Source: Candidatus Komeilibacteria bacterium CG11_big_fil_rev_8_21_14_0_20_36_20
GTDB lineage: Bacteria > Patescibacteriota > Patescibacteriia > UBA1558 > GWA2-36-10
Length of the DNA: 64,000 nt
Assembly: GCA_002787405.1 (NCBI GenBank)
Contig: PCWQ01000007.1
Coordinates: 31,296-95,295, forward strand
Direction: 5' to 3'
In this document: one piece after another, positions 2,625 through 53,994 of the stretch
Layout: every line of letters begins with the position of its first letter
Numbering within the stretch: the first letter of the stretch is position 1
Program-made: the position numbers and the translations under genes
The notes under the pieces: model-generated
Told to the model about the DNA's origin: nothing
Seen by the model: the letters and a program-made list of their open reading frames with translations, nothing else
The model's database searches: none

Positions 2625-4739
2625 CTATCTTATAAAACTATTAATCATCTCCGCCAAAGCAGACTGATTATTCTCCTCTAATTGCCTGGCAAATTGTTGG
2701 AGATGTTGATACTCATCATCCGTCAAGGCCTGCTTTCTTTCTGAAAAATTAATTTCCCTAATCTTATTTAGATTCTCCTCCATACCTGACAAATCGCCAC
2801 TAATCAAATAAACCTGGAACAGATTCCAATAGACCGGTTTAGCCCAAGGAGCTAGATTTTTTAATTCTATAGCGTTCTCCTCAGCCGCCTGAATATCACC
2901 GAAGATTAAATAGGTTCTAGTTAATTGTAAATAAATATCCGGCCTCTGGGGAGCTTGATTTTTTAATTTATTTAATAAATCAAGATTTTTTAAAATAAAC
3001 TCCTGATCAATTGTCGCAAAATCACTATAAAAACTGGACAGCATCATGTTTAACCTAACGTCGTAGGGATGCCTTTTACTCTCCTCTTCTAGATAACCCT
3101 CCACCAAGACAAACAACTTAGTTTTACTTTGATCATCAAGATAAGGATTAGTGGATACGTTTAGCATCATTTGCAATAAAACCTCCACTTTCTCTTTCTC
3201 GCCTAAACTACTTAAAGTAAAGGACCGCTGCCACTCCTCCAGGGCTTGATCAAAACTTTGCTGATCCCGAGCTAAGCTAATATTTCTAAATGATTTAGTT
3301 AATAATAAATTGCTTCCCAGTGGATTCCAGAAAAAAGTTAAAGAAAAACTAATGATAATCATTAAACTCAGTAAAGCATGAACTCCGTGTCCTCTTTTAA
3401 AAGGAATATGATCTCTCTTTTGTTGCTTAACACCGACCATAAATAAAAAAGAAAGGATCAGATACAAGATAAGGTTAGTATTTAAATTATCAAAAATAAA
3501 AAAATCATGAAACAGAAAACTTATCAGGAAAGCGATCCAAAAAAAACTAAAAAACCAATCATTATCCTGTTTATATTTTTGATATAAATAAAATATCAAG
3601 AAAACAAACACTGACAGATACAAAAAAAATCCGACAATACCCCCTTGCACCAAATGCTGAACTAAAATATTATGAGGCCGATCAAACCATAATTCCGAAC
3701 TTTCATCACGAAAAATTTCTATGGGAAAATAACCATTAAAAACATAATGAAAATTTTCTTCACCCCAACCCAATAAAGGCCTCTCCTGAACACCTCGCCA
3801 GCTATTACGCCAGATAGTTAAACGGGATTGAGTGGTAATATCATTTAAAGAAATGTGGGTTAATTTATAAGCCAGATGAATTCTGTCTACCCAGGCGCTA
3901 TCTTTTTGTTGCCATAATAATCCCAACAGTAAAAAGCTAGCCAACAAAATCCCTAGAGCAAAATAATACCCTGCCTTTCTTTCCCTTCTTTTAAACCAAA
4001 GATAGAATATTATTAATAAGAATATAAAAAATGCTAGACCTAAAAATGCCCCTCTAGTTTGAGTGACTATTAAAATAAAAATAAATAAACCGACGCTTAG
4101 AATATACCAAAAATTCAAAAAAGACCAACCTTTTAACCTTAATCTATTAAATAAGAGATAAACTGCCACTACTGTCTGAAGGAACATATATGACCCAACA
4201 TAAGCCGCATTACCTAAAGTGGAAGTTAATCTGCCTCCACCATATGATGGTAAAATAAAATTTAAATTAAATTGCTGCCCTAAAGCAACTAAAGCGACCA
4301 GCCAGGCGGCAATCAGAGAAATATTGAGAAGCTGCCGCCAAGATTTAGTGCTATTAACAACTCCCAACAAAACAAAAATATACATTAACAAATGATACCA
4401 ATTCACCAATCCATCCATTCTTTCAAAATTGCTCCAGAAACTAAAAGAAAAATTCATTCCCAGAAGACTGGAAACTGTTAACCCGATGACAAATAAAAAT
4501 ATAAAAATAAAAGCTTTATTAAATTTTGGACGAAAACTTTTGTTAGTTAGAATTAAATAAAAATAAAGACCAAAAATAATATCTATAATTAAACGAAAAA
4601 ATAAATTTCTTGGAACGATGAAAGGAAAATAAAAACCATCAATCACCACTAAAGGCAAAAATAGAACCAATAACAGCCCGATTTTAATTAATAATAATAG
4701 GCAATTATCCAGTCTGTTTAATTGAGATAAAACACGCAT
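2625..4739 (-). CDS. O-antigen ligase-like (Wzy_C domain) polytopic membrane protein with C-terminal TPR repeats; candidate O-oligosaccharyltransferase or polymerase
   Basis: 704 aa with more than 10 TM helices and a Wzy_C-like core (QTRGAFLGLAFFIF). The C-terminal third is soluble, TPR-like and helical. It is a paralog of 47034..49307. Confidence 0.65.
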   Translation of the reverse strand: MRVLSQLNRLDNCLLLLIKIGLLLVLFLPLVVIDGFYFPFIVPRNLFFRLIIDIIFGLYFYLILTNKSFRPKFNKAFIFIFLFVIGLTVSSLLGMNFSFSFWSNFERMDGLVNWYHLLMYIFVLLGVVNSTKSWRQLLNISLIAAWLVALVALGQQFNLNFILPSYGGGRLTSTLGNAAYVGSYMFLQTVVAVYLLFNRLRLKGWSFLNFWYILSVGLFIFILIVTQTRGAFLGLAFFIFLLIIFYLWFKRRERKAGYYFALGILLASFLLLGLLWQQKDSAWVDRIHLAYKLTHISLNDITTQSRLTIWRNSWRGVQERPLLGWGEENFHYVFNGYFPIEIFRDESSELWFDRPHNILVQHLVQGGIVGFFLYLSVFVFLIFYLYQKYKQDNDWFFSFFWIAFLISFLFHDFFIFDNLNTNLILYLILSFLFMVGVKQQKRDHIPFKRGHGVHALLSLMIIISFSLTFFWNPLGSNLLLTKSFRNISLARDQQSFDQALEEWQRSFTLSSLGEKEKVEVLLQMMLNVSTNPYLDDQSKTKLFVLVEGYLEEESKRHPYDVRLNMMLSSFYSDFATIDQEFILKNLDLLNKLKNQAPQRPDIYLQLTRTYLIFGDIQAAEENAIELKNLAPWAKPVYWNLFQVYLISGDLSGMEENLNKIREINFSERKQALTDDEYQHLQQFARQLEENNQSALAEMINSFIR

Positions 4740-4854
4740 TGTTAATAAATAAAGGCAATAAAAAGATAATCCATAAATAAACTAAATAAATAATAAAAAT
4801 TTGACAGTTAAGGTTATTTATATTATAATATAAAATACTATTTAATTCAAGCAA

Positions 4855-6219
4855 ATGAAAAAAATTACCCTATTTATCATTGACATTGTTTTACTCTATG
4901 CGAGTTTAGCTCTAACTTTATGGCTGCGCTATGGCCAGATCAACAAAGATTTATGGATGAGACATTTCTGGCCTTTTTCTATAATCTTTGCTCTTTGGAT
5001 TGTTGTTTTTTTTATTAATGGCTTATATGAAATACGTAAAGTTAGAAATGATTTTAAATTTTATGGAAATTTAATTCAAAATTTGCTAATCAATGCTCTG
5101 CTAGCCGTCTTAGTTTTTTATGTAATCTTAGGTAACTTCACCACCTTAAAACCGCAAACAGTTTTAGTTGTCCTGTTAATTATTTTTACAATACTTTTCC
5201 TTGTCTGGCGCAGATTATTTTACGAACTTATTTCCAGCGCTACCCTCAGAGACAATCTAGCTATTATCGGGATTAATGAAGGGTCACTACTCTTAGCTGA
5301 AGAAATCATTACTAAACCGCACCTGGGTTATAATTTAAAACTAATCATCAATCCCGATTATTCTTTGATCCCTGAAAAATTTCACATTATCTCTATTAGT
5401 AAAGATATCTCTGATTTAAAAAATCAACTAGTCACCCACAAAATTAACACTGTGGTCAGCGTTAATAACCCGAAATACAGTCCCGAAGTGGCTCGGTATT
5501 TATTTGAAACTATTGATTTAAAAATACAATATCTGAACCTCACCGACTTTTATGAAAAAGTTACTGGAAAAATACTGGTTACTGCTTTGGAGCGCAACTG
5601 GTTTCTAGAAAATATCACCAGAAAAAATAATGAATTATTTAAAGCTACTAAAAGAACCATCGATATAGTTTGCTCTGTTATTTTTGGCTTAATATCATTA
5701 ATTATTATGCCTATCCTCGCTCTATTAATTAAATCAGAATCAAAGGGTCCTTTAATTTATAAACAGGAACGAGTAGGGTTAAACGGCAAAAAAATCACGG
5801 TCTATAAATTTCGTTCTATGGTTCACAATGCAGAAACTACTCAAGAAATCTGGGCCCAAAAAAACGATAATCGGATCACCCGCATAGGCAAATTTATTCG
5901 TAAAACTCGGCTGGATGAAATACCCCAATTTTGGAATATCTTCAGAGGCAATATGAGTTTTGTCGGGCCAAGACCGGAAAGGCCTAAATTTGTAGAGCAA
6001 CTCAAAAAAAAGGTGCCTTTTTATAACGAAAGGCATCTGGTCAAACCTGGCTTAACCGGCTGGGCGCAAATCAATTTCCCCTATGGATCTTCAATTGAAG
6101 ATGCCCATGAAAAACTGCAATATGATCTGTTCTATATAAAAAATCAGTCAATCTCCTTAGATATTTCCATTATTTTAAAAACTATTAACGCTATTTTTAG
6201 TATTAATCTAGGCAGATAA
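4855..6219 (+). CDS. polyprenyl-phosphate hexose-1-phosphate transferase (WbaP/WcaJ-like initiating sugar transferase, Bac_transf domain)
   Basis: 454 aa with N-terminal TM helices. The C-terminal region reads IDIVCSVIFGLISLIIMPILALLIKSESKGPLIYKQERVGLNGKKITVYKFRSM...PRPERP, which is typical of this family. Confidence 0.85.
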   Translation: MKKITLFIIDIVLLYASLALTLWLRYGQINKDLWMRHFWPFSIIFALWIVVFFINGLYEIRKVRNDFKFYGNLIQNLLINALLAVLVFYVILGNFTTLKPQTVLVVLLIIFTILFLVWRRLFYELISSATLRDNLAIIGINEGSLLLAEEIITKPHLGYNLKLIINPDYSLIPEKFHIISISKDISDLKNQLVTHKINTVVSVNNPKYSPEVARYLFETIDLKIQYLNLTDFYEKVTGKILVTALERNWFLENITRKNNELFKATKRTIDIVCSVIFGLISLIIMPILALLIKSESKGPLIYKQERVGLNGKKITVYKFRSMVHNAETTQEIWAQKNDNRITRIGKFIRKTRLDEIPQFWNIFRGNMSFVGPRPERPKFVEQLKKKVPFYNERHLVKPGLTGWAQINFPYGSSIEDAHEKLQYDLFYIKNQSISLDISIILKTINAIFSINLGR

Positions 6220-6232: not shown

Positions 6233-7216
6233 ATGAAAAATAAAAAATCAAACCTAAAAAATAAGACTATTCTTGTAACCGGCAGCGCCGGTTTCATTGG
6301 TTTTCATTTATCTAAGAGACTTTTAGAAGAAGGTGTCAAAATAATCGGACTAGACAATTTCAATAATTATTATGATCCCCAACTGAAAGAATCTCGAAAT
6401 AAAATCCTGGAAAAGTTTGATAACTTTAAGTTATATAGAGGCGACCTAACTGATTTAAATTTTGTCAAGAAAATTTTTCAAGAAAATAAAATTGATAAGG
6501 TTTGCCATCTAGCCGCTCAAGCTGGGGTAAGATACAGCTTAATTAACCCCTACGCCTATATTCAATCCAACTTAGTCGGCTTTCATCATATTATTGACGA
6601 AGCTAAAAATGCCGGCATCAAAGACTTCATCTATGCTTCCAGTAGTTCTGTTTACGGTAATAATAAAAAGGTTCCTTTTTCTGTAGATGATAGGATTGAT
6701 CATCCAATATCATTATACGCAGCCACTAAAAAATCTAATGAACTCCTAGCTCATACTTACCATCATCTTTATGACATGAATTGCACCGGTCTACGATTTT
6801 TTACAGTCTATGGCCCTTATGGCCGTCCAGATATGGCTTTATTTCTATTTACCAAAGCTATTCTAGAGAATCAACCAATTAAAGTATTTAACTTCGGCAA
6901 AATGGAAAGAGACTTTACTTATATTGATGATATTATTGATGGGGTTGTTTCCAGCTTAGAATATTCTTATCCCTATGAAATATTCAATCTAGGCAATAAT
7001 CAACCGGTCAAACTTGAAGATTTCATCCAACACATTGAAAATGAATTAAACCAAAAAGCCCAAAAAGAATATTTACCGATCCAACCCGGTGACGTGCCTA
7101 AAACTTTTGCGGATATAACCAGCAGCAAAGAAAAACTTAACTATCAACCCACTACACCTATAAAAAAAGGAATTAATAAATTTATGAATTGGTATAAAGA
7201 CTATTATAAAATATAA
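6233..7216 (+). CDS. NAD-dependent nucleotide-sugar epimerase (UDP-glucuronate 4-epimerase / WbpP-like, SDR family)
   Basis: The Rossmann motif reads TGSAGFIGFHLSKRL. A YASSSSVYG serine and a YAATKKSNE YxxxK motif are present. The N-terminal sequence matches UDP-glucuronate 4-epimerases. Confidence 0.8.
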   Translation: MKNKKSNLKNKTILVTGSAGFIGFHLSKRLLEEGVKIIGLDNFNNYYDPQLKESRNKILEKFDNFKLYRGDLTDLNFVKKIFQENKIDKVCHLAAQAGVRYSLINPYAYIQSNLVGFHHIIDEAKNAGIKDFIYASSSSVYGNNKKVPFSVDDRIDHPISLYAATKKSNELLAHTYHHLYDMNCTGLRFFTVYGPYGRPDMALFLFTKAILENQPIKVFNFGKMERDFTYIDDIIDGVVSSLEYSYPYEIFNLGNNQPVKLEDFIQHIENELNQKAQKEYLPIQPGDVPKTFADITSSKEKLNYQPTTPIKKGINKFMNWYKDYYKI

Positions 7217-7291: not shown

Positions 7292-8047
7292 CTATACAAT
7301 TATTTTGATAATAATACCTTTACCAAATAATTTAGGGAATATTTTATTTAAAATCGGAAGCCCTTCGTAAATTATAATCTTGTCCAATTTTAAATTTAAA
7401 GCCTTGCTCCACCATCTAACATCCTCTGCTGTCCAAAAACGCAAATGCTCTCCAGGATGAGCCATCCACTGCACAGGAAAACGGCCGCATAACAACCTCA
7501 AACGATGAATATAGTAACCTGTGTTGGGTATAGAGAAAATCAGTGCTTTCCTAGCTTTACTTTTTATATTTAAAACGAATTCCTCTGAGTTAGACATGTG
7601 TTCAATAATCTCTAACCCCAATATATAATCCACCTCCGGCAAATTCTTTAAATTATCAAAATTATTGATATCCATAGTTATTGTTTTGATACCTTCCTGT
7701 TTAGCTTTAACTAAAATTTCACTACTAATATCAACACCAATTCCATTTATACTCATCTTCTCCTTTAAATATTTTAAGATTCCACCATCTCCACAACCTA
7801 TATCTAGAACTTCTGAATTTGGCTCTAACATATCTAAAATATATTTTAGCCTTTGTTTTTGCCAACCAGACAAAACAGAAACCGACCCTTTTCTTTTTAA
7901 TTTCCAATATTTATTATAATCAACGGCTGTGCCGTTATTTAAATCACACCTTGGATAATTAAATAATGACGAAAAATCCCGTTTAATTTTGTATAAAAAA
8001 ATTTTAAACATATTATTAGACATATATATTAGTTTTATATAACTCAA
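7292..8047 (-). CDS. class I SAM-dependent methyltransferase (MetW-like)
   Basis: A SAM-binding motif reads LDIGCGDGGILKYL. The C-terminal segment PNTGYYIHRLRLLCGRFPVQWMAHPGEHLRFWT resembles the MetW family. Confidence 0.6.
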   Translation of the reverse strand: MSYIKLIYMSNNMFKIFLYKIKRDFSSLFNYPRCDLNNGTAVDYNKYWKLKRKGSVSVLSGWQKQRLKYILDMLEPNSEVLDIGCGDGGILKYLKEKMSINGIGVDISSEILVKAKQEGIKTITMDINNFDNLKNLPEVDYILGLEIIEHMSNSEEFVLNIKSKARKALIFSIPNTGYYIHRLRLLCGRFPVQWMAHPGEHLRFWTAEDVRWWSKALNLKLDKIIIYEGLPILNKIFPKLFGKGIIIKIIV

Positions 8048-8093
8048 TAATGTCTTTTGCTATATTTTCACTTAATTAATCAACCTATGATTA

Positions 8094-9407
8094 TTAAGAC
8101 AATCTCTCGAAACTAGAATGCACCACTGGCCCTTCTAATAAATCATAAAGTTTATGTGATACAACCGCTTGCTCTAATAAATTACAAACCTTTTCTGCTG
8201 CCTTCACATATAATTTGGCATAATCTTCTGTGAGGCTATAACTAACATATATAGTAGCCGAAGCCAAAACGCCTCTTTTAAGCATTTCTTGAGTAAATAA
8301 GGTACGAATAGCTTGACTATCTTTACCATAATCAAAAAAAAGATGAATCAATGGCGGTAATCCACTAATCTTAAGTTTCAAACCGCTATTTTCAGCTGAT
8401 GTCTTTAATCCTTTTATTATTAAGCGTCCAATTTTATCAAGCTGTTTAGGGACATCTTTGTCTATCATCTTCTTAATGGTCGTTATAGCCGCCATTGGGC
8501 CAACCCTCTCTGTCCAATAAGAACTGCTAATAAATGAAGTTTGAGCCGCTTGCATAACATTCCTATTGCCAATAATAGCCGCCATTGGGAAACCATTGCT
8601 CATTCCCTTAGCAAAAACAGCTATGTCAGGATTTACGTCGTATTTTAGATGAGCACCCCCAACATTAAGACGCCAAGCAATGGTTACTTCATCAAAAATG
8701 AGAACCGCTCCAATTTTATCAGCCAGATTTCTTATTTTTTTTAAAAAATCATCCTCTGGCTCATCATTCCTTAAAGGCTCCATAACAATTGCGCCAATAT
8801 CATTGTTTTTTAAAACAATATCCTCTAACTCCTTTATTTTATTATAGTGAAAAGGGATCGCTGTGCCAGCCAGCCCTCTTGGCACGCCCCTTGGCTCTAA
8901 TCCTGCTAATAAATGCCCATCCAGATGTTTATCGTTAAATAAATTAGCAGCTAAATACCAATCATGCCAACCATGATAGCCACAAAAAGCAATCTTATCT
9001 TTCCCTGAATATGCCCGAGCGATTCTGACAGCTACTGCCATTGCTTCTCCGCCACCTCTGGTATATCTAACCATCTCGGCCCAAGGATGCAATTTACATA
9101 GCAACTTCGCCAATTCTACATCTTCAGGAGAATTGAGTGTACAGATAGAACCTGATCTAATTACTTTTTCTACTGCTTCATTGACATCTGGATCGGCATA
9201 ACCCAATATACAAGCACCGACGCTAGCATAAGTATCAATATATTCATTGCCATCTAAATCCCAAACTTTAACGCCTTCCGCTTTTTTAAAATAAGAAGGC
9301 CAATGTTCTGGCAAAAACATCTCTGAACGTTTTGATAGTAATTGTGTTCCACCTGGAATAATTTTCTTTGCTTCGTTCCATAATAGAACACCTTTTGTTG
9401 ACTTCAT
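8094..9407 (-). CDS. class III aminotransferase (glutamate-1-semialdehyde aminomutase-like)
   Basis: 437 aa. The N-terminus (IIPGGTQLLSKR...KAEGVKVWDLDGNEYIDTYASVGACILGY) matches HemL-type PLP-dependent enzymes. Confidence 0.8.
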   Translation of the reverse strand: MKSTKGVLLWNEAKKIIPGGTQLLSKRSEMFLPEHWPSYFKKAEGVKVWDLDGNEYIDTYASVGACILGYADPDVNEAVEKVIRSGSICTLNSPEDVELAKLLCKLHPWAEMVRYTRGGGEAMAVAVRIARAYSGKDKIAFCGYHGWHDWYLAANLFNDKHLDGHLLAGLEPRGVPRGLAGTAIPFHYNKIKELEDIVLKNNDIGAIVMEPLRNDEPEDDFLKKIRNLADKIGAVLIFDEVTIAWRLNVGGAHLKYDVNPDIAVFAKGMSNGFPMAAIIGNRNVMQAAQTSFISSSYWTERVGPMAAITTIKKMIDKDVPKQLDKIGRLIIKGLKTSAENSGLKLKISGLPPLIHLFFDYGKDSQAIRTLFTQEMLKRGVLASATIYVSYSLTEDYAKLYVKAAEKVCNLLEQAVVSHKLYDLLEGPVVHSSFERLS

Positions 9408-10254
9408 AGCTGTTTGTTTTAAGTATAAAATAATTTTCTAAAAATAAAGCATCTAGCTCAGTATTGTTAAAAAGATTTAATGCCTGCTCAGGATTCTCCA
9501 CAATAGGTTCTCCCCTACCATTCATTGATGTATTCATAACAAGAGGGATCCCTGTAATTTTGTAAAATTCTTTTATTAAATTGTAATATGATTCATTAAC
9601 ATCTTTTTTTACAACTTGTGGTCGCGTTGAATTATCAACATGTAAAGCCGCCGGAATTTTATCTTGCATATTATTTTGTATATATCTAGCAATAATCATA
9701 AAATCGGCACAATTGGGAATATAGCCCTGGAGATATTTATGTTTATATTCATCTAAAATTGATACAGCAAGTGGCCGCCACTGTTCTCTATATTTTATTG
9801 TATTCATTCTTTCTTTGTTTTTCTTTTTTGTTGGGTTTGATAAGATACTTCTGTTCCCTAAAGCTCTTGCACCAGCTTCCATTTTGCCATTAAACCAACC
9901 AATAACTTTATCCTCAGCGATTAACTTTGCTGCTTGCTTATATGGTTCTTTAAGATATTCAAATCTTAGACCCTTAGATTTTAGCATTTTTTCTATATAA
10001 CTATTACTATATTTAGTGCCATAATATAGATGGCGCATCTCTTCAAAATCATTCCTCCCAGTTTTTTCAACATATTTCAACATTGCTGAACCAATCATAC
10101 TACCATTATCTCCAGCTAAAGGCTGGATAAAAATATCTTGAATCAACCCTGACTCTAAGATTTTACTATTCATAACGCAGTTCATCGCCACGCCACCAGC
10201 TAGACATAAATTATTACTTTTAAATTTCCTTTTCCCTATTTTTATTAGAATCAA
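9286..10254 (-). CDS. carbamoyltransferase (NodU/CmcH family), C-terminal part of a gene split by a frameshift
   Basis: Contains NLCLAGGVAMNCVMN, typical of O-carbamoyltransferases. Reading on in the +1 frame from the upstream ORF across the T8 run at 10323..10330 gives an uninterrupted sequence. Confidence 0.75.
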   Translation of the reverse strand: MILIKIGKRKFKSNNLCLAGGVAMNCVMNSKILESGLIQDIFIQPLAGDNGSMIGSAMLKYVEKTGRNDFEEMRHLYYGTKYSNSYIEKMLKSKGLRFEYLKEPYKQAAKLIAEDKVIGWFNGKMEAGARALGNRSILSNPTKKKNKERMNTIKYREQWRPLAVSILDEYKHKYLQGYIPNCADFMIIARYIQNNMQDKIPAALHVDNSTRPQVVKKDVNESYYNLIKEFYKITGIPLVMNTSMNGRGEPIVENPEQALNLFNNTELDALFLENYFILKTNSYEVNKRCSIMERSKENYSRWNTITIKTFRDVFARTLAFLF

Positions 10255-10268
10255 TAATACTTCTTCAA

Positions 10269-11090
10269 CTAAATCCTGGACCGCATAAGCAAGATCAACA
10301 TATTTCTTATCAAAATTTTCTCTTTTTTTTCTTCTAAAATATCAATTGCAAATGTAGCTTTAATATAATTGAATCTATCTTTCCAAGACGATGCTAATTT
10401 CTTGTGTCTTATTTGATAACCACTTCTTCTAAGTTTCATTATTTTTTTATCAAATAACTTTTTTATTTTTTTATCATAATTTCCATAAGCAGATAGTCCC
10501 ATAGTTTGACCTTCACCACTTATTGGTTTAAAACCTAGGAATCCTGTTATATCGGTATATATTTCTCCAATCGAATTAGGCCAATCAAATACTTTAATTT
10601 CTTTGAGCTTACCCTCCACTCCTTTAAAAATAACGGAAGATTCTTTTTCGCCAGCTCCATCTACTGTAATAACCAATGATTCATCAAACCCACTCAAATA
10701 GTAAGCTGATGCGGCGTGTGATAAGTGATGATTATAAAATGTAATTGGTGGCATTTTTAAATTACCAAATTTTAATTTAAGTTGATCATATATAATATCT
10801 TTTGCCTCTAATATCACCTCGCTATGTTTTAATCCTTTTTGTTTTACAAAAGGCCATTGTGTGGGTTCAAAAGGAATGGTGATATAATCTATATCAGATA
10901 AAGTTAAATTATTCATATTAAGTGTTATACTAATAGCATTAATAGGAAATTGTCCTTCTGCGTGCTTAACCCTAGTAAATCTTTCCTCTTCTAAAATTGA
11001 TATAATTTTGTTATCTTCCAATAAAATTACCGCCCCATCGTGAGTTCCAAAATAAGGTGGTATGCTTGGTTTAAAAGATAAAATTTTCAT
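10269..11090 (-). CDS. carbamoyltransferase (NodU/CmcH family), N-terminal part of a gene split by a frameshift
   Basis: The N-terminus reads MKILSFKPSIPPYFGTHDGAVILLEDNKIISILEEERFTRVKH, as in the carbamoyltransferase N-terminal domain. With 9286..10254 the total is about 595 aa, a normal size for the family. Confidence 0.75.
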   Translation of the reverse strand: MKILSFKPSIPPYFGTHDGAVILLEDNKIISILEEERFTRVKHAEGQFPINAISITLNMNNLTLSDIDYITIPFEPTQWPFVKQKGLKHSEVILEAKDIIYDQLKLKFGNLKMPPITFYNHHLSHAASAYYLSGFDESLVITVDGAGEKESSVIFKGVEGKLKEIKVFDWPNSIGEIYTDITGFLGFKPISGEGQTMGLSAYGNYDKKIKKLFDKKIMKLRRSGYQIRHKKLASSWKDRFNYIKATFAIDILEEKKEKILIRNMLILLMRSRI

Positions 11091-11106
11091 AATGTTATTT
11101 TAAATT

Positions 11107-11948: not shown

Positions 11949-11980
11949 AATCCTTTAAAGTTATTAAAATTGTTGATTGA

Positions 11981-43923: not shown

Positions 43924-43925
43924 GA

Positions 43926-45068: not shown

Positions 45069-45142
45069 AAAACAAGACTTGCTTTACCTTATTAAATACT
45101 ATAAAATTATACCAGTATTTACGAAATAAATCAATTGATAAA

Positions 45143-46342: not shown

Positions 46343-46908
46343 CCTTCGAGGTCGATTTCAACTAATCTTCTGATATAAACATCTAAATTCTTAGTATACT
46401 CTTGAAAGTCAACTAGATAATCCTGGTTGACTAATTTAAATTTTGCTCGATGAATATAATCATAATGGGAGCTGTAGAGCCAATCATTAATATTCTTTGT
46501 TAACTTATGTTTAAGCGGATTTAGATTAATATAACTAATGACAGTCTCAAGATAATTATCATCTTCGACAAGTTTAGACTTAAATGAACCCGCAAAAATT
46601 CTCCCTGAATGCTCTTTATGTATATTAAAATATTTACTATAAGAATTAGATAAAAGTGAAATAAAACGAGATATAGCTGATGATTCGACCTTCGAGGTCA
46701 AATCCGGCTCTTGCAATAGAAAATGCCAATGGTTGGGCATTACGCAATAAGCTAGAATTTTAACATGCGTTTTTTCTTTATAAAATAAAGCTTTTTCAAG
46801 AAAATAAGTATAATCTTGCTCCGTATAAAAAATAGTCCTTTTTTCCACCGCACGATTATAAATATGGTGGATAGTATTGGGGAAAAAATTTCTTGGTTTA
46901 TTAGGCAT
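46339..46908 (-). CDS. IS200/IS605-family Y1 (HUH) transposase-like protein, probably a REP-associated tyrosine transposase (RAYT)
   Basis: The HUH motif reads CVMPNHWHFLLQ. A C-terminal WLYSSHYDY (W-x-SS...Y) is present. 189 aa. The gene is flanked by palindromic repeats. Confidence 0.75.
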   Translation of the reverse strand: MPNKPRNFFPNTIHHIYNRAVEKRTIFYTEQDYTYFLEKALFYKEKTHVKILAYCVMPNHWHFLLQEPDLTSKVESSAISRFISLLSNSYSKYFNIHKEHSGRIFAGSFKSKLVEDDNYLETVISYINLNPLKHKLTKNINDWLYSSHYDYIHRAKFKLVNQDYLVDFQEYTKNLDVYIRRLVEIDLEG

Positions 46909-47033: not shown

Positions 47034-49307
47034 TCAAGACGGCTGAAACTCGCCGTTTTTAATTCTCTCGATAAAATCTTCGGATTGAGTCAAATATGGC
47101 TCGCCGAATTTTTTAACTTCTTCAGCAATAGCAATGGCCTGATCATTCATCCCCAAACTAGCGTAGGATAAAGCTAAACTAATATAATACTGGGGATTCT
47201 CTGAATACTGCTGCCTCAAAATATCGTAAAAATAAGCCGACCAAGTAAAATCTTGGGCGTTGACTGCTGCACTGGCCATGCGGTTCAAGGGTTCCTCTTG
47301 TTTATAATTCAAATTCATTGAATCCATGGTTTCAAGATATGGCTGCACTTTATCCGGCTGATGACTGGCCAATAAAACCATAACCATATTAATATAAGAT
47401 TCTAAAACATCGTCATTCAAATCTATGGCTTTTTGAAAATTAACCACCAAATCGCTCTGATACTTAGCGGCTTCTTCTGGTTTGCCCTGATCTGTCAGCC
47501 ATAAATAAAGATACAAATCAGCATAGCCCATTTCCTCATAAATTTGCAGTCTAGTAGGACTATATTTTAAAGCCGTTTCTCCCAACGGAAAAACTTTATA
47601 CAATCTATTTGGATCTAAAACATAAGTATAGTTATAATGACGCATAAATAACAAATAATTAGCTACGTCAGCTGGATTTTCTGCAATGCGTTTTTCCAAT
47701 TCCTGATCTATATGTGTGACATACTGTGTGGCATTATAGGGCGTAATTAACTGATGAACAATTAAACCATCAACAAATTCAACAACTCTTCTCCTAAATT
47801 CATTGGTGCCGGAAGTACGGTAATCAATTGCCTGAAAATAAGTATTAACCGCCTGAGGAACATCAACATTTTCCAAATGCAAGGCATCAATCACAGTCAA
47901 ATTGGCTTTAGCTTCTTTAAGATTAACCCAATACATAATTGGACCCAAGGCAATAAGGTAAACCACCAAAATAGCCGCCATAACTTTACGTCCAGTGAAC
48001 TCAAATTTAGGTTTGGTATATTTTTGAGCTATCAAAACTATAATCAAAAACAAAGGTAGATAAGTAACCATGGCCTCAAAAACAAAAATTCCTTGAACAA
48101 TAAAAGCTATAATGGCTAGAGCCAAAATTTGATTGCCAAAATCAATATTTTTTGATTCCTCTTTTCTCCCAGCCGTTGCTTTCTTTAAAACTATATAAAG
48201 CGGCCATAATATTAAAAGACTATACAAAAGCAAACCAATAATGCCCCCCGTAACTAAATGATCAAGAAAAATATTATGAGCTCGGTCAAACCAAACTTGT
48301 GAACCGGCGTGTGAATATATTTCCGGATTAAAATACTTGTTAAAAACAACAGAAAAATTTTCCTGACCATAACCCAAAATCGGCTTTTCTTTAAATCCCT
48401 GCCAAGCGGAATTCCAGGTCATTAAACGGGTCTGGGCGGTTCTTTCTGATAAAGAAATACTGGTCATTCTCCTTAGAGCTTCATTATTCTGAATAAAATC
48501 GCTTGAGCGATTGACATAGATAACGGCGCCCAGCACACACAAAATCAACCCCAGAGCAATTAATGAATATTTGATTTTTTTATGGCTTATTCGAAAAATA
48601 TTGTAGATAACAAAAATCAAGGCACTAGCTAAAATTGCCACAAAAGCACCACGAGTACCGGTCTGAACCATGACAAACAAATCAATCAAAATGGCCACAA
48701 TATAATAAATACTTAAATACTTATTGTGACGTTTAATCATCAAATAAAGACCAAAAAAGACCGCCAACAAAGAATAACCAGCCAGATAAGCAGCATTACC
48801 AATAGTCGAAGCGACCCGACCATCAGTCACTCCTGTTCTATTAATAAAATCAACATTAAAATACTGCAACAAGCCGATTAAGACCACTATTTGAGCGGCA
48901 ACGAAAAATACTTCCCATAAAAATAGCCACTCTTTTCGGTTGGAGATAAAATTACGCAGGATAAAAAATAAAATAAACATGTGAGACCAGAGCAAAAGGC
49001 CTTCTGATCTCTCAATATTACTCCAGAAGCTAAAATAAAAATTATCACCCAGTAAAGAGGAAAGAAACATAGAAACCAATAAGATAAAAAAGACAATCGT
49101 CAGCCAATCAATTTTAACCTTAATTTCTTTCTTCACTAGAACGTAAATGAGCCACAATAAGAGCAAGACTTCCACTAAAATTCTAAAAGCCAGGGCTTTA
49201 CTGTAAATATAGGGAAAGAAAAAATTACTATTAATATAAATAGGGGTCAGCATAATTAGAATCAAAGCTGACCAAATAAGCTTGGAAAATATTTTATCTG
49301 CTTTCAT
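47034..49307 (-). CDS. O-antigen ligase-like (Wzy_C) polytopic membrane protein with C-terminal TPR repeats; paralog of 2625..4739
   Basis: 757 aa. Shared blocks with 2625..4739 include FSFWSNIERSEGLLLW and QTGTRGAFVAILAS. The C-terminal half is TPR-like and soluble. Confidence 0.65.
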   Translation of the reverse strand: MKADKIFSKLIWSALILIMLTPIYINSNFFFPYIYSKALAFRILVEVLLLLWLIYVLVKKEIKVKIDWLTIVFFILLVSMFLSSLLGDNFYFSFWSNIERSEGLLLWSHMFILFFILRNFISNRKEWLFLWEVFFVAAQIVVLIGLLQYFNVDFINRTGVTDGRVASTIGNAAYLAGYSLLAVFFGLYLMIKRHNKYLSIYYIVAILIDLFVMVQTGTRGAFVAILASALIFVIYNIFRISHKKIKYSLIALGLILCVLGAVIYVNRSSDFIQNNEALRRMTSISLSERTAQTRLMTWNSAWQGFKEKPILGYGQENFSVVFNKYFNPEIYSHAGSQVWFDRAHNIFLDHLVTGGIIGLLLYSLLILWPLYIVLKKATAGRKEESKNIDFGNQILALAIIAFIVQGIFVFEAMVTYLPLFLIIVLIAQKYTKPKFEFTGRKVMAAILVVYLIALGPIMYWVNLKEAKANLTVIDALHLENVDVPQAVNTYFQAIDYRTSGTNEFRRRVVEFVDGLIVHQLITPYNATQYVTHIDQELEKRIAENPADVANYLLFMRHYNYTYVLDPNRLYKVFPLGETALKYSPTRLQIYEEMGYADLYLYLWLTDQGKPEEAAKYQSDLVVNFQKAIDLNDDVLESYINMVMVLLASHQPDKVQPYLETMDSMNLNYKQEEPLNRMASAAVNAQDFTWSAYFYDILRQQYSENPQYYISLALSYASLGMNDQAIAIAEEVKKFGEPYLTQSEDFIERIKNGEFQPS

Positions 49308-49314: not shown

Positions 49315-50019
49315 TTAAAAAGTATGCTCCGGGTCTAATTCTAAAATTTTGTTTTTATAATACTCGGCCTTATTGGCGTCTAGTTGTTTATCTTTAAAGA
49401 AATAATACAAATACTGGTAAAAATTAACATCCGACTGTCCGGCCGGCTTACTCATTCCATCCAACATAATAGTCTCTACTCTATAGGACTCTGCCGGTAA
49501 ATAAGTTTCGTATAAATCAGCATAAGAAACATAATAGTGATAATAGCCAATATTATCTTTGTTAATGGATAAATCAAAATAATAAGCAGCCTGATCATAA
49601 TCTCGGGCAAATGACTTGTAATAGTTGCCTAAATTGGAAAAAGCTAAAGGATTGATGGGATTTAAAACAGTGTCATATTTCCAGGCCTCTACCGCCCCCT
49701 CGAAATCCATCAAGCCAAGCTTAAGATTGCCGATTTCTATCCATAAATCATAAACATCATAGTCATCCGCCTGATGTAAATATCCATAATCATTATTCAG
49801 CCGGTCCACTAAGTTCTGGGTAGACTCTTCATCCATATCCGTATCAGGAAAATCACTAAGCTGATAAACATAATCAATCGGTGGTTGATTATTATTATTT
49901 TGACCTTGGTTGTTATTAGAACCAAAAATCAACCAAATAGCTAGGGCGATAACCGCCAAAATTAAAATAATAAAAAGATTTTTTTTATTCACCCTGTTAG
50001 AAATTTTAAGATTATTCAT
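49315..50019 (-). CDS. hypothetical membrane-anchored protein (N-terminal TM; Asn/Gln-rich linker; Tyr-rich TPR-like C-terminus)
   Basis: A 234-aa ORF with a single N-terminal hydrophobic helix. Confidence 0.4.
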   Translation of the reverse strand: MNNLKISNRVNKKNLFIILILAVIALAIWLIFGSNNNQGQNNNNQPPIDYVYQLSDFPDTDMDEESTQNLVDRLNNDYGYLHQADDYDVYDLWIEIGNLKLGLMDFEGAVEAWKYDTVLNPINPLAFSNLGNYYKSFARDYDQAAYYFDLSINKDNIGYYHYYVSYADLYETYLPAESYRVETIMLDGMSKPAGQSDVNFYQYLYYFFKDKQLDANKAEYYKNKILELDPEHTF

Positions 50020-50117: not shown

Positions 50118-50147
50118 CACCCTTCCCCCTTTACAGGGGGAAGGGTG
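50118..50147 (-). terminator. candidate intrinsic terminator hairpin downstream of the surface-protein gene
   Basis: A 12-bp GC-rich stem (cacccttccccc / gggggaagggtg) with a 6-nt loop lies about 45-70 nt 3' of the stop at 50191. On the minus strand it is followed by a T-rich stretch. Confidence 0.5.
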
Positions 50148-50190: not shown

Positions 50191-53100
50191 TTAACCTGAC
50201 CAGCTAATAGTATAACTTGGAGTTGACGTAGTGACAGCTCCTAAGCCGGATACGAGGTATCCATTATACCATTGTCCGTATTCTGTAGCGGTAGCTCCTG
50301 TTGTGTCTATACCTCTACCTTTATAGTTGTCTGACCAGACAAAGTTACCTTGATTTAAGGCGCCCCAAGCATCAGCATAGTTAGTATTAATATCTGTGGT
50401 TGGATTACCATAACCATCAGATGACGTCGAAGAAGCAGTATCACCTAACATAGCTACACTAACATTCTCTCCTGTTCCAGCAAGAGCAATAGTACAATTA
50501 TAGTAATAAGTCTCGCTAGAGCCGGCTGAAATTTGTAAAGGCTCTAATTCATCACTATGTGAAATAAGAGGATTATCAAAGGTGTAAGTATTATAGCCAC
50601 CATAGCCGTCACCTCCATCTAAATCGGTTGGATCAGCAGCAGTGCCGACAACATTACCGTCGCTATCTCTTAGATAACAACTGGTAACATTAATAGTACC
50701 ACCAGTAGCCACAGTAAGAGTAGCGCGATATAGCAACACTTCATTGCCCGAAGCATCAGCCGCCACATTAAAGGCATAAAGATCAATTGCGCCGTTAGTC
50801 AAAGATGTAGCTGCGCCTAAAGGAGCGCTGGCAGTTGAATGAGTAACAGTTGGCAAAGCTTTGTGAAGCACCATACCAGTAGTGGTTGAACCATTATAAG
50901 TCTCGGAAGTAACCACATCGTTAGAATCAACACCTGTGGTTTTAACACCATCTGTGCCGCCTAGACCAAATCTGACATCAGCGCCTGGAGTACCAGGAGC
51001 ATTATCAGCACTTGAACTAATAGTTCCTAGGTCAGCTTTAACAGTAATGGTTTTTGAACCGTCTTGAGGAATGGTTAAAGTGTTATTAGGAAAGTTGAAA
51101 GTATAGTATCCAGTTGATGGAATGGCAGCACTACCTAATAAAGTAGAACCGTCATATAAATACACTTTTGAGACATCCTGATAATTACCGGTAGCTGTAC
51201 CAGTAATATTACCGTCAGCCACAAAAACTTTCAATTGATCAAGATCAAGATTTTCATTAAACGCTTCCAGTCGAATATTACCAAAGGTTACTCCAGTAGC
51301 GCCGGCTCTAACAATTGCGGCGCTAGGATTGTTGTAAGTGCTAATGGTCAAAGTGCCGGCTGTGGCTACAGTCATGGTAGCACCCATGTCAGCGGTCAAA
51401 GTAACTATCCCTCTGTTTCCACTAGTAACACCATAAGCAATGACTGAAGCATTAGCTGTGGTGCTTACATCAACTAAACCAAAGATACCTACTTGTTCAG
51501 CAACAGCTCCGGTATTGACATCGGCAATCAACTGAATGGTCTTTGAAGTTCCTTTAGTAAGCACAATTGGATCATCAAAGGCAAAAGTTGAAGAAGCTGA
51601 ATCATAGCCATCGTTGTCTGCTGGGGCATCATTGACTGGACTCTTGGCTACACCACCGCTGCCAAAGACACCGTCATAAATAGTCAAGTTGGTGAAATTG
51701 GTGGAAGAGGCATGAACAACTATTGAAGTTATTCTAATATCTTCACCTGAATTTGTACCGTCAAAGTTCCAAGAACCCACTAAAACATCTTGAGCGCCGG
51801 CAATTACTGTAGCGTTGGCTGGCAAGGTGTTTCTAGTGACAGTCAAATTAGCGGCCTTAACTGTCTGGGTGTTGGTATCAACATTAGCTGCTGGGCTAGC
51901 GGTAATTGAATTACCGGTTACCTGACCAGTAGCAGTAATAGCGCTAGCTGCAGTTGCAAGTCTAGCATAAATAGTATCGTCAGTAGCCCATCCGCCGCTG
52001 ATATTCAAATTACCCATAATTGTATATTCACTCTCGCCAACTGGCAAAGTAAATGTATCCGTGAAAGCTACGGTTAAAGCATCATTGGTAATATCAGTTG
52101 GACCGGCCACAGTTACGCCATTGCTATCAACTATTTTAACTCCTTCCAAAGCATCTTCAATCTGAGCGCCAGAAGAAGAAACAATGGTTAAGGTCAATTC
52201 AGTGACGTCAATTGGTTCACCTTTAACCGTAAATTTAAAGGCGCCTAGAGTTTGGTCGCTTCCAACTGTAACATTGTCAGCACCAACACTGGATCCTCTT
52301 TCCACAGTCATATTACCATTAGCAATTTGAAATTCATTAGCGCTTAAGACTGGCTTAGTAGCAGCAGAACCAGTACCGCTATAGGTTGGGGTAATATTAT
52401 AACCATAAGTATTACCTTTTACTAATAGGTCTGTAGTTCTGTAGATACCTAAATCAACTGTTCGGGCTGAACCGCTCTCAACATCGGCTTGCACCTGATA
52501 TTGATAGGTCTGGCCTTTAGGAATAGTGGTGGCAGCAATACTAAAGTTAATATACTTACCATCAACCACACCGTCGGCGATCTTGGTACCGTCTTTTAAC
52601 AAGGCATATCCAGAAAGATCTTCACTTAAGCTGGCTGTACCTTCTTGGTAAACAGAAACCTGATTAAAGGTCACATCTTCAACTGAACCTGCTTGGATTT
52701 GGAAAGCAAAGAAAGTATAGTCCTGTTTGCCTACTTCAATGGTAGTAGAACTAGCATTGTTATAGGAACCTCTTTGAACAGTAGCTGTACCAATTGTAAT
52801 GGTATGGTTTAAAGTCTGGGTATTACCATAGGCAGGCAATGAGCCAATAACTGAACCACTACCTTTCAAAGTAATAGAAGCTAAACCAAGGGCTGGATTT
52901 TCACCAGCATAGCTGTCTAAAGAAGCAGCCATATTACCGGCTAAATAAATATATTGAGTGGTGTTGGCTGGGATGACAACATCCTTGGTAAAGGTAGCTT
53001 GGTGATTGGAGTTGAAAGTCTTTGAGTTTTGATCAAAAGGAATCATGGTGCTGCCGTCCAAAACATCAATGGTTGAAAAAGCAGCATCCTGCCCGATTCC

Positions 53101-53994
53101 ACCTCTTTGAACAACCATTGTGTCAATGGTTACTCCTTCGCTACCGGTGGTTAATTTAAGTTTGGTGAAAGGATATCTAGCGGCACCTTCAACTACAATG
53201 CCGGAAGCTGGCGTATCGCTAGCCAATGACACTGTTAGGTCGCCACCAGAAACTGGTCCACCGCCTTCACCCGGCATATAACCTGCCAGTTCTGTTTCTT
53301 CACCGGTGATTGATTCGCCGGTTGAATAACCATCTACGTTAGCCACGTCAATAACATAGTCATAACTAAAGTTATTGGCTTCAAAGGCATCAGAAGTAGC
53401 AAATGGTCGGACTGTATCGCCTTCACCGACATAATACAAATCCTCGCCCACCTGCAGCAATGTACCTTCTGGATACATAGTGCTTAAATCAGAACCAGTG
53501 GTATAGCTGGATGAAAAATAACCTGGGATAACATCTAGAACTCTAGATCCCCAATCGGCACCATACAAATCTTCAGCCACGTCTCCTGTAGGAATCCAGT
53601 GGAGTGTTCCACCCGGACCAACAGCATAAATTTTGGCTGTATTCATATGGGTAACCAATTTGGTTCCCGGTCGATAAGTCACGGCGCCGCCGTCTGCATA
53701 CAAATCCAGTTCAGCTACGTTAACTCTGACCACATTGTCAAAGTTATCATACCAAGTATTATATGTTTTTCCATCTGGGAAAACATATTTCATACCATCT
53801 GAACCAATGTAATAAACAGCTGCACCAGATTGACCTTCTAAGGCAAGCAAAGAGCCTGCTCCGTAATTACCAGCGGCTTTGGCTACTGGCGCAAAAGATA
53901 CGCCAACTGACCAAAGGGCAGTGGTAATCACCAAAGAAAATACAGCAAATTTCTTTAATAAGTGCATGTTTCTTTTTTTTAAAAAAGTCCCCAA
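50191..53994 (-). CDS. large secreted Thr/Ser/Gly/Ala/Val-rich surface protein (S-layer or adhesin-like, repeated beta-sandwich-like modules)
   Basis: 1267 aa. The signal-peptide-like N-terminus reads MGTFLKKRNMHLLKKFAVFSLVITTALWSVGVSFAPVAKAAG. Two related modules of about 90 aa are followed by more than 1000 aa of low-complexity T/S/G-rich repeats. GC content is about 45% against about 30% elsewhere. Confidence 0.7.
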   Translation of the reverse strand: MGTFLKKRNMHLLKKFAVFSLVITTALWSVGVSFAPVAKAAGNYGAGSLLALEGQSGAAVYYIGSDGMKYVFPDGKTYNTWYDNFDNVVRVNVAELDLYADGGAVTYRPGTKLVTHMNTAKIYAVGPGGTLHWIPTGDVAEDLYGADWGSRVLDVIPGYFSSSYTTGSDLSTMYPEGTLLQVGEDLYYVGEGDTVRPFATSDAFEANNFSYDYVIDVANVDGYSTGESITGEETELAGYMPGEGGGPVSGGDLTVSLASDTPASGIVVEGAARYPFTKLKLTTGSEGVTIDTMVVQRGGIGQDAAFSTIDVLDGSTMIPFDQNSKTFNSNHQATFTKDVVIPANTTQYIYLAGNMAASLDSYAGENPALGLASITLKGSGSVIGSLPAYGNTQTLNHTITIGTATVQRGSYNNASSTTIEVGKQDYTFFAFQIQAGSVEDVTFNQVSVYQEGTASLSEDLSGYALLKDGTKIADGVVDGKYINFSIAATTIPKGQTYQYQVQADVESGSARTVDLGIYRTTDLLVKGNTYGYNITPTYSGTGSAATKPVLSANEFQIANGNMTVERGSSVGADNVTVGSDQTLGAFKFTVKGEPIDVTELTLTIVSSSGAQIEDALEGVKIVDSNGVTVAGPTDITNDALTVAFTDTFTLPVGESEYTIMGNLNISGGWATDDTIYARLATAASAITATGQVTGNSITASPAANVDTNTQTVKAANLTVTRNTLPANATVIAGAQDVLVGSWNFDGTNSGEDIRITSIVVHASSTNFTNLTIYDGVFGSGGVAKSPVNDAPADNDGYDSASSTFAFDDPIVLTKGTSKTIQLIADVNTGAVAEQVGIFGLVDVSTTANASVIAYGVTSGNRGIVTLTADMGATMTVATAGTLTISTYNNPSAAIVRAGATGVTFGNIRLEAFNENLDLDQLKVFVADGNITGTATGNYQDVSKVYLYDGSTLLGSAAIPSTGYYTFNFPNNTLTIPQDGSKTITVKADLGTISSSADNAPGTPGADVRFGLGGTDGVKTTGVDSNDVVTSETYNGSTTTGMVLHKALPTVTHSTASAPLGAATSLTNGAIDLYAFNVAADASGNEVLLYRATLTVATGGTINVTSCYLRDSDGNVVGTAADPTDLDGGDGYGGYNTYTFDNPLISHSDELEPLQISAGSSETYYYNCTIALAGTGENVSVAMLGDTASSTSSDGYGNPTTDINTNYADAWGALNQGNFVWSDNYKGRGIDTTGATATEYGQWYNGYLVSGLGAVTTSTPSYTISWSG

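Follow-up and report, generated by a model that had tools for sequence, protein, structure and literature searches.

A putative cell-surface glycoprotein locus in a Komeilibacteria genome, organized like Gram-positive S-layer glycosylation loci

What does a bacterium build with some 45 kb of glycan genes, and to which molecule is the product attached? The question arises in a 64,000-nucleotide stretch of the genome of Candidatus Komeilibacteria bacterium CG11_big_fil_rev_8_21_14_0_20_36_20 (contig PCWQ01000007.1; hereafter the window), where these genes are enclosed by two membrane proteins of the Wzy_C family, Wzy704 and Wzy757. Adjacent to Wzy757 are the genes for a small tetratricopeptide repeat (TPR) protein and for a secreted protein of about 1,260 residues. 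An earlier sequence-only reading of this DNA had proposed en bloc O-glycosylation of the secreted protein. In our analysis, the sugar cluster most likely decorates this surface protein, as happens in some Gram-positive surface layers (S-layers). We put at about even the chance that the window holds a cell-surface glycoprotein locus of a single-membrane bacterium, built on the plan of the S-layer glycosylation (slg) loci known from Geobacillus and Paenibacillus.

A large part of bacterial diversity belongs to the candidate phyla radiation (CPR, or Patescibacteria), whose members rely on contact with other cells and have almost uncharacterized envelopes. Reliable cell-wall information is wanting for most of them (PMC8871954), and the same source, citing Luef et al. 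2015, describes a single membrane in the few CPR cells studied so far. Because described CPR cells have a single membrane, a role in lipopolysaccharide (LPS) synthesis is unlikely for an “O-antigen ligase” found here. The window is ~33% G+C and carries nearly all of its genes on the minus strand. Pfam and NCBIfam scans covered all 50 of its open reading frames (ORFs) of at least 150 aa; statements on the presence or absence of gene families in the window refer to this set. No lpx, waa, or lpt family was matched by Pfam in the window, which does not bear out the conventional LPS context that had been entertained. Both Wzy_C proteins are 100% identical to metagenome-assembled proteins of Candidatus Komeilibacteria bacterium CG11_big_fil_rev_8_21..., and the hundreds of homologs with a named source all belong to Patescibacteria/Parcubacteria or to an unclassified “bacterium.”

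The Wzy_C proteins and the surface-protein cassette

Wzy757 (47034..49307, minus strand; 757 aa) joins a Wzy_C core (Pfam E=1.4e-21) to a predicted extracytoplasmic TPR solenoid; Wzy704 (2625..4739, minus strand; 704 aa) joins such a core (E=6.5e-24) to a C-terminal helical, TPR-like tail. Both exceed the gathering score of PF04932 (84.8 and 77.3 bits vs a cutoff of 31.7), and they are paralogs, with 29% identity over 635 aa (E=1e-71). Each has a WaaL-like core with 13 membrane helices and an outward-facing helical-repeat tail. Pfam does not call TPRs in either window protein (best E=0.038). Many of their homologs give strong Pfam TPR matches, and a 38-sequence family profile searched against PDB finds TPR proteins at positions 580-745 with E=1e-53. 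The same profile finds WaaL (7tpg, E=5e-10) and, as a sequence match, the entry 9rmk, “Oligosaccharyltransferase” (E=1.6e-7); the latter is absent from the fold-search results and is lost with a 12-sequence membrane-core profile. As a single sequence, Wzy757 retrieves WaaL only (E=2e-6), and Wzy704 retrieves nothing from PDB.

The AlphaFold2 model of Wzy757 (predicted local distance difference test, pLDDT, 91.4; predicted template modeling score, pTM, 0.88) displays the WaaL-like membrane fold with its external catalytic loop. Its membrane part has 13 helices, of which the ninth and tenth are joined by a large loop, and residues 483-750 form an all-helical solenoid. By the distribution of positive charges, the solenoid and the helix 9-10 loop are predicted to lie outside the cell. 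Three residues, R219, R294, and H344, are invariant in the 38 sequences. They align to R191, R265, and H313 of Cupriavidus WaaL, residues of the site that binds undecaprenyl pyrophosphate (Und-PP) and catalyzes transfer. Roles for this Arg/His site in WaaL-like enzymes are also treated in PMC12800693. We place both proteins firmly in the Wzy_C/O-antigen-ligase superfamily (GT-C, WaaL-like fold). The earlier description of two paralogs with TPR ectodomains is upheld by their identity, the family profile, and the model, and Wzy757 is a candidate O-oligosaccharyltransferase (O-OTase) for the adjacent surface protein.

The surface protein is the candidate glycan acceptor. Its 1,267-codon ORF (50191..53994, minus strand) encodes a Sec signal peptide ending AKA, followed by AG, an N-terminal alpha/beta region, and a series of beta-sandwich modules. 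The true start is probably an ATG ten codons inside the ORF, giving a protein of ~1,258 aa; the sequence-only reading was right about a secreted, Ser/Thr-rich protein and probably overstated its length at 1267 aa. Ser and Thr make up 21% of the residues vs 10.4% in the other window proteins. Acidic residues number 126 against 56 basic ones, and there are two Cys. Among 1.84 billion representative proteins, clustered at 50% identity, 655 clusters match this single query at E<=1e-30. Of the best 150 of these, nearly all align along the greater part of their length, which for most is ~1,100-1,300 aa. The homologs are strikingly uniform in length, are all annotated as “hypothetical,” and come from Patescibacteria where a source is named; the large proteins of two relatives share 48% and 42% identity with the window protein over the full length. 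An AlphaFold2 model of residues 68-1267 (pLDDT 84.4) begins with the N-terminal alpha/beta region, continues with about ten cohesin/Ig-like beta-sandwich modules, and closes with a small C-terminal domain. The C-terminus holds a conserved motif, GNFVWSD...QWYNGY, and the N-terminal repeat region varies between homologs. The family has no known domain, including SLH or any other known anchoring domain. From these features, the protein is plausibly an S-layer subunit or outer coat.

The genes around the surface protein form a cassette with a fixed order: an extracytoplasmic function (ECF) sigma factor, a DUF5667 protein, the ~1,200-aa surface protein, the small TPR protein, and a Wzy_C-TPR protein. 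In the window, the ECF-type sigma factor (55735..56286, minus strand; Pfam Sigma70_r2, Sigma70_r4_2, and Sigma70_ECF) precedes the DUF5667 protein (54372..55712, minus strand; E=3.1e-6), which has one membrane helix, is conserved in synteny, and is a possible anti-sigma factor or sensor. The small TPR protein (TPR234; 49315..50019, minus strand; 234 aa) is anchored by one N-terminal membrane helix, and its orthologs are genuine TPR proteins (E=1e-10 in locus L001; L numbers denote the loci compared). We fetched the contigs of four Wzy757 homologs with 56%, 55%, 39%, and 35% identity, including Falkowbacteria and Doudnabacteria genomes. All four encode a Pfam-less protein of ~1,200-1,290 aa and a TPR protein of ~226-238 aa, then a Wzy_C-TPR protein; three of the four have the ECF sigma and DUF5667 genes upstream. 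The cassette is thus seen in Komeili-, Falkow-, and Doudnabacteria.

A wider comparison took the surface protein as query (with a profile from a 12-sequence subset, then tblastn) in one genome per species, and yielded 44 loci. The sigma factor lies upstream of the surface-protein gene in most of them. A Wzy757 homolog is encoded 0.6-6 kb downstream on the same strand in 29 of the 44, which affirms the suspected co-occurrence of ligase-TPR proteins with large surface proteins in related genomes. The remaining 15 comprise five loci that end at most 3 kb from the gene (L009, L012, L018, L026, and L030), two partial matches (L035 and L038), and eight homologs of at most 34% identity (L036, L037, L040-L043, L045, and L046). 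In the Falkowbacteria locus L003, no glycan cluster adjoins the cassette, which is followed directly by the genes for ribosomal protein L25 and FtsW, so that the Wzy_C gene travels with the surface protein and not with a sugar cluster. In the window (7 nt) and in L002-L004, 4-22 nt separate the stop codon of the small TPR gene from the start of the Wzy_C gene. Such tight and wide co-location of a Wzy757-type gene with the surface-protein gene is what would be expected of a dedicated protein O-OTase.

The small TPR gene also follows the surface-protein gene in loci where no Wzy_C gene was found (L036 and L043), and it has no detectable similarity to the TPR tail of Wzy757. Simple domain fission, considered as a link between the two, is accordingly unsupported. 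The Sungiibacteriota locus L036 (15991-18164 and 19168-20466) has a distant surface-protein homolog followed by two PG_binding_1 proteins and the small TPR protein, together with a PKD/LTD protein, a GT4-GT4 fusion, and no Wzy_C gene within 10 kb. Genes for PMT/PMT_2 enzymes of the GT-C class occur in or near the cassette in L002, L003, L004, L010, L016, L019, L026, L029, L030, L032, L039, and L040; L010 and L040 have two copies, which in L040 occupy the usual Wzy_C position. Pfam finds no PMT gene in the window. On its other side, Wzy757 directly adjoins an IS200/IS605-type Y1 transposase-like gene (46339..46908, minus strand; Pfam Y1_Tnp E=9.1e-10), where L001, L005, and L008 carry a second Wzy_C-TPR paralog. 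The substitution hints at a rearrangement in the window genome.

A perfect 13-bp G+C-rich hairpin (CACCCTTCCCCCT...AGGGGGAAGGGTG; 50118..50147) lies 44 nt after the stop codon of the surface-protein gene. It has no clear U-tract, and a sigma-70-like promoter (TTGTCA, 17 nt, TACAAT) comes next, ahead of the TPR and Wzy_C genes. The hairpin may be a terminator or a 3' mRNA stabilizer, and the succession of hairpin and promoter would fit an abundantly expressed surface-protein gene that is transcribed on its own. Upstream, ~100 nt before the start codon, a GAAAGGTCG motif is followed by a hairpin of variable sequence (54071..54096, minus strand). The heptamer AAGGTCG, represented in the window by GAAAGGTCG, occurs in 21 of 27 upstream regions, ~70-150 nt before the surface-protein start codon. 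A hairpin follows within 0-3 nt; its stem differs between loci and its loop is often a GNRA-type tetraloop. A scan of upstream hairpins gave a mean of 6.2 vs 4.7 for shuffled sequences, with 8 of 20 loci matched by at most 6% of shuffles, a moderately significant difference. The element has no Rfam match, and RNAalifold on a MAFFT alignment gave no consensus. One possibility is that a highly expressed gene has here an RNA element in its 5' leader. This intergenic region also contains a second conserved palindrome, TCCCTAACTTATCGCTAAATCGCGCGCGATTAGGGA, at 54215-54262 (minus strand), from which the k-mers TTATCGC, GCGCGCG, and CCTAACT are found again in 8-12 of the 27 loci. The ECF-sigma control that had been ascribed to the surface-protein gene is matched by conserved synteny. 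Upstream of this gene, no convincing shared -35/-10 promoter of the ECF type was found, and the region before the sigma gene has no GAAAGGTCG motif; it is thus synteny alone that suggests ECF control.

The glycan genes and the Wzy704 end

Pfam and NCBIfam recover the components that had been read from the sequence, in the places where they had been put, with a slightly lower number of glycosyltransferases and a nonulosonic-acid module that is partial. At the Wzy704 end, a WbaP-like polyprenyl-phosphate hexose-1-phosphate transferase (4855..6219, plus strand; Pfam Bac_transf E=1.3e-68) scores 376 bits against TIGR03025, vs a cutoff of 295, in agreement with its proposed part as the initiating enzyme. 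It is followed by an NAD-dependent sugar epimerase/dehydratase (6233..7216, plus strand; Pfam Epimerase E=7.8e-56). A WecA/MraY-family polyprenyl-phosphate HexNAc-1-phosphate transferase (59589..60674, minus strand; Pfam Glycos_transf_4 E=2.1e-26) has WecA as its top NCBIfam match at 113 bits, under the cutoff, and is a possible second initiating enzyme.

The cluster proper begins with a sugar-tailoring block (7292..24367, minus strand; Pfam and NCBIfam). It encodes methyltransferases, a class-III aminotransferase, a split carbamoyltransferase, a WbuX amidotransferase (NCBIfam 318 bits vs a cutoff of 203), a GT2 glycosyltransferase, two B12-radical S-adenosylmethionine (SAM) enzymes, a cytidylyltransferase-sugar dehydrogenase fusion, a NeuB-family synthase, and PseB. 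The nonulosonic-acid module that had been claimed here is real in part. PseB (23396-24367) is above its equivalog cutoff (NCBIfam 462 bits vs 408), the NeuB-family (NeuB/PseI) synthase (22326-23438) is a strong match under the equivalog cutoffs, and a CMP-type cytidylyltransferase with a CTP_transf_3 domain is fused to the sugar dehydrogenase (18916-21084); PseC, PseH, and PseG were not found by Pfam or NCBIfam in the window. Next come a Capsule_synth-like protein (24415..25836, minus strand; Pfam PF05159 E=2.9e-9; no NCBIfam match), a possible transferase for a nonulosonic or keto-sugar acid, and a fused ABC exporter of the MsbA/PglK/HepA type (25842..27623, minus strand; Pfam ABC_membrane and ABC_tran). 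The top NCBIfam matches of the exporter are HepA, MsbA, and PglK, each under the equivalog cutoff, and it is the candidate flippase of a lipid-linked glycan. As the sequence-only reading had it, this exporter is present and no Wzx, Wzz/GNVR, or outer-membrane export family is matched by any window ORF in the scanned set.

A core glycan block (28865..46342; Pfam) lies on the minus strand except for a GT4 gene at 45143-46342 on the plus strand. It encodes seven GT4 enzymes, RmlC/RmlD-like enzymes, an AsnB-type amidotransferase, a CDP-alcohol phosphatidyltransferase-like protein, an RtcB-like protein, two B12-radical SAM enzymes, and a methyltransferase. The order GT4, methyltransferase, radical SAM, AsnB after the Wzy757-type gene is common to the window, L001, and L002. 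In all, the window has eight Pfam glycosyltransferases (GT2 at 14131; GT4 at 28865, 31673, 36881, 37918, 41943, 43926, and 45143), or about nine when the Capsule_synth-like protein at 24415 is counted; the earlier figure of ten was slightly high. Its tailoring enzymes include two amidotransferases (WbuX and AsnB), five SAM methyltransferases, and four B12-binding radical SAM enzymes.

Several members of the cluster stand out. The four B12-radical SAM enzymes (14987-18150 and 39057-41941) reach no NCBIfam equivalog cutoff, and one or two such genes are kept at the same place in L001, L002, and L050; their presence suggests an unusual sugar modification, such as C-methylation. The RtcB-like protein (Pfam RtcB, 93 bits) and the CDP-alcohol phosphatidyltransferase-like protein occupy 34744-36875, between the AsnB and GT4 genes; a member of an RNA-ligase family is an odd component for a glycan cluster. 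In the regions 9286-11090 and 11236-11948, the NodU/CmcH-type carbamoyltransferase is broken into two ORFs, and two adjacent ORFs of 145 aa and 72 aa were read by eye as fragments of an ornithine/aspartate carbamoyltransferase-like gene. These broken ORFs are frameshifts, pseudogenes, or assembly errors. A 151-aa RmlC-like cupin (31143-31598) matches Pfam Polysacc_synt_C (E=2e-11), the C-terminal domain of Wzx. We considered and rejected a Wzx remnant here: the protein is soluble and cupin-like, so the match looks like a model artifact.

The two Wzy_C proteins are not interchangeable ends of a bracket: they belong to distinct orthogroups with different conserved neighbors. The Wzy704 orthogroup comprises the ~45 closest of 839 matches, with 41-54% identity and lengths of ~650-735 aa. 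In the relatives L049-L051, the Wzy704-type gene is divergent from WbaP (in some loci also from the epimerase) and Wzx, with glycan genes beyond. A cluster of genes for a methyl-accepting chemotaxis protein (MCP), CheW, CheA, CheY, PilB, PilC, and pilin follows. The window retains MCP, CheW, WbaP, and the epimerase; it has no Wzx, and an ABC exporter instead. Since its orthologs sit beside WbaP and Wzx, Wzy704 is likelier to be the polymerase or ligase of the WbaP-initiated pathway. The distinct orthogroups and neighbors suggest which of the two proteins transfers and which polymerizes. On a 405-kb contig of a relative, a Wzy704-type pair and a Wzy757-type gene lie ~21 kb apart in the same orientation; the bracketed layout is thus conserved, around a glycan island of variable size. 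Genomes may hold three or more Wzy_C paralogs, as one contig does (P0010, P0264, and P0273).

The left anchor conserved with the Wzy704-type gene is the MCP-signaling-like protein (1371..2519, minus strand; Pfam MCPsignal E=2.4e-7, under the cutoff), the same gene as in L049-L051, and a CheW-like ORF occupies 935-1369. A chemotaxis-like and type IV pilus gene set thus stands next to the Wzy704-type gene in those relatives, and the window shows its first two genes only (935-2519).

Known systems and competing explanations

The closest known system is Gram-positive S-layer glycosylation, with Geobacillus stearothermophilus NRS 2004/3a (WsaP, WsaA, WsaB, Wzm/Wzt, and SgsE) and Paenibacillus alvei (WsfP, WsfB, Wzx/Wzy, and SpaA) as reference loci. 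In these systems, a WbaP-type enzyme initiates the glycan, export falls to a Wzx/Wzy pair or an ABC transporter, and a Wzy_C-domain transferase, WsaB or WsfB, makes the final transfer (PMC2943079). The same 2010 review describes a C-terminal TPR motif in WsfB and PglL; WsaB has none, and a 168-aa TPR protein, WsaA, is encoded just upstream. The Wzy_C-TPR architecture is therefore of a known kind, and the earlier statement that a TPR fusion is foreign to characterized PglL enzymes was mistaken. S-layer genes form transcription units of their own, which in Geobacillus lie near the slg cluster; the P. alvei slg locus encodes an asparagine-synthase homolog (PMC2943079). The window shares the initiator, an exporter or flippase, an AsnB-type asparagine-synthase homolog, a nearby surface-protein gene that is apparently transcribed on its own, and a Wzy_C transferase with TPRs in both forms, as a fused tail and as the separate TPR234 encoded upstream.

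The window differs from slg loci in several respects. Its candidate acceptor belongs to an unrelated family, so far found in CPR only, that has neither SLH nor another known anchor domain. The TPR solenoid is long (~270 aa) and additional to a separate TPR protein, and each genome has two or three orthogroups of Wzy_C-TPR proteins. In place of Wzm/Wzt there is an exporter of the MsbA/PglK type. The window further contains four B12-radical SAM enzymes and a partial nonulosonic-acid module, and ECF sigma and DUF5667 genes lie upstream. What is new here is the combination of the CPR lineage, the acceptor family, the long fused solenoid plus separate TPR protein, several Wzy_C-TPR orthogroups per genome, a PglK-type exporter that replaces Wzx, the radical SAM enzymes, and the conserved sigma and DUF5667 genes upstream.

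A second point of comparison is the PglL, PglS, and PilO enzymes of Neisseria, Acinetobacter, and Pseudomonas, which move glycans en bloc from Und-PP to Ser/Thr (PMC12800693, PMC2943079). Their Wzy_C core with conserved Arg and His resembles that of the window proteins. In the AlphaFold model of PglS, a membrane part of 13 helices is joined to a large C-terminal domain, which is periplasmic and adjoins an Arg/His site of the WaaL kind (PMC12800693); a comparable layout, with 13 helices and an extracytoplasmic C-terminal domain next to the active site, is predicted for Wzy757. In contrast to these enzymes, Wzy757 belongs to a single-membrane CPR host and is apparently dedicated to one neighboring acceptor gene and not to general glycosylation. 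WaaL of Cupriavidus metallidurans (PDB 7TPG/7TPJ) has no C-terminal TPR, and its acceptor is lipid A-core, whereas the window has no LPS genes.

We propose the following path for the glycan. The WbaP-like transferase, or possibly the nearby WecA-like one, would start it on undecaprenyl phosphate at the inner membrane face. GT4 and GT2 transferases would lengthen it with sugars from the cluster's own synthesis and tailoring enzymes: a pseudaminic-type nonulosonic acid, 6-deoxyhexoses, and uronic acids and their amides, bearing methyl and carbamoyl groups. The PglK/MsbA-type ABC exporter would flip the lipid-linked glycan, a step assigned to Wzx in relatives, and Wzy704 would polymerize or process it on the outer face. 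Wzy757 would then transfer it en bloc to hydroxyl residues of the secreted protein of ~1,260 aa encoded next to it, with the outward TPR solenoid and the separate small TPR protein holding the acceptor. The acceptor itself would be an abundant, uniformly sized, acidic array of beta-sandwiches, plausibly an S-layer or outer coat. We infer the first four and the last of these steps from family membership and gene context; for the transfer step, the structure model provides the topology alone. Family membership, topology, and synteny are observed, and the catalytic steps and the glycosylation would build on them. For the sequence from undecaprenyl phosphate through ABC flipping and Wzy704 to en bloc transfer by Wzy757, we see the balance as even. 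The earlier proposal of en bloc protein O-glycosylation thus keeps its footing in gene co-location, PglS/PglL-like topology, and a window free of LPS genes; glycosylation is the part that we infer.

Several points weigh against this proposal. PglL_A is part of the PglL architecture, and this N-terminal domain (PF15864) has no match at E<=5 in either Wzy_C protein. Wzy_C_2 (PF11846) is matched only in homologs and under the cutoff (E=2e-4 and 7e-4). An OTase, a ligase, and a polymerase are indistinguishable by our sequence and fold searches, because the fold-search results held WaaL only and no PglL or Wzy structure; the remote-homology comparison that had been suggested goes as far as the WaaL-like superfamily. 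No Wzy_C gene lies within 10 kb of the distant surface-protein homologs of Sungii- and Adlerbacteria, which keep the small TPR gene, so that the TPR protein may serve assembly rather than glycosylation. The PMT-family GT-C enzymes in many relatives' cassettes could be true protein glycosyltransferases. A literature search on CPR glycosylation, S-layers, and O-antigen ligases returned nothing relevant and no experimental proof of glycosylation for any CPR protein.

These points leave room for other explanations, of which the main one is a serious if improbable contender: the Wzy_C-TPR proteins may build or attach a secondary cell-wall polymer or lipoglycan, in the manner of WpaA/WpaB of Bacillus anthracis, to which the surface protein binds through its N-terminal domain. 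As presented in the sections of PMC6030368 drawn on here, WpaA and WpaB share a Pfam clan with Wzy and WaaL, act in a single-membrane bacterium, and have a functional tie to the S-layer, the assembly of which is disturbed by their depletion. A wall polymer would explain the linkage of surface-protein and Wzy_C genes equally well, the variable N-terminal repeat region could bind the wall, and PG_binding_1 proteins adjoin the surface homolog in L036. However, WpaA and WpaB belong to another Pfam family (PF13425); the same sections report no TPR fusion or adjacent TPR gene, and present their activities in secondary cell-wall polysaccharide deposition as proposed and unproven. A TPR solenoid with a translationally coupled TPR protein is closer to the OTases WsfB and WsaA/WsaB (PMC2943079), and in Falkowbacteria the cassette stands alone, without genes for polymer synthesis.

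It is unlikely that Wzy704 and Wzy757 are both ordinary polymerases, which would join the repeat units of two capsule or exopolysaccharide pathways and be encoded near the surface protein through a general clustering of envelope genes. Pfam Wzy_C does include many Wzy polymerases, relatives L049-L051 have Wzy704-type genes in the classical WbaP/Wzx/Wzy_C arrangement, and genomes have three or more such paralogs. These observations fit Wzy704 and fit the Wzy757 orthogroup poorly: at just 35-39% identity, it keeps its place after the surface-protein and TPR genes, even beside ribosomal and division genes, and no Wzz/PCP chain-length regulator is found in the window. Characterized Wzy polymerases are not known to require an external TPR domain of ~270 aa. 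Still less probable, to the point that we give it little weight, is glycosylation of the surface protein by PMT-family (GT-C) mannosyltransferase-like enzymes, as in actinobacteria, with some other envelope role for the Wzy_C-TPR proteins. PMT/PMT_2 genes lie inside or beside the cassette in 11 of the relatives listed above and take the Wzy_C position in L040; yet the window keeps the cassette without a PMT gene, and PMT_2-type enzymes modify lipids and glycans too.

Implications for the CPR cell surface

En bloc transfer to the surface protein would carry a wider picture, which we offer tentatively and hold as rather less probable than the proposal for the locus itself: the ~1,200-aa family would be the long-sought major S-layer or coat protein of many Parcubacteria and related CPR, a glycoprotein made by a dedicated, lineage-wide cassette in which the small TPR protein acts as a chaperone, with a GAAAGGUCG-hairpin leader that aids high expression and glycans modified by B12-radical SAM enzymes. 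If true, this would provide a defined and testable surface architecture for CPR and a new clade of O-OTases with a built-in substrate clamp. O-oligosaccharyltransferases serve in making conjugate vaccines, and acceptor rules could differ in a clade whose TPR substrate-binding domain is fused to the enzyme. Should the Wzy_C-TPR proteins instead attach a wall polymer, the locus would still define how CPR cells anchor their coat. Tied into one conserved unit, an abundant surface-protein family, a Wzy_C-type transferase, and a variable glycan island indicate which molecules probably make up the outer face of the cell.

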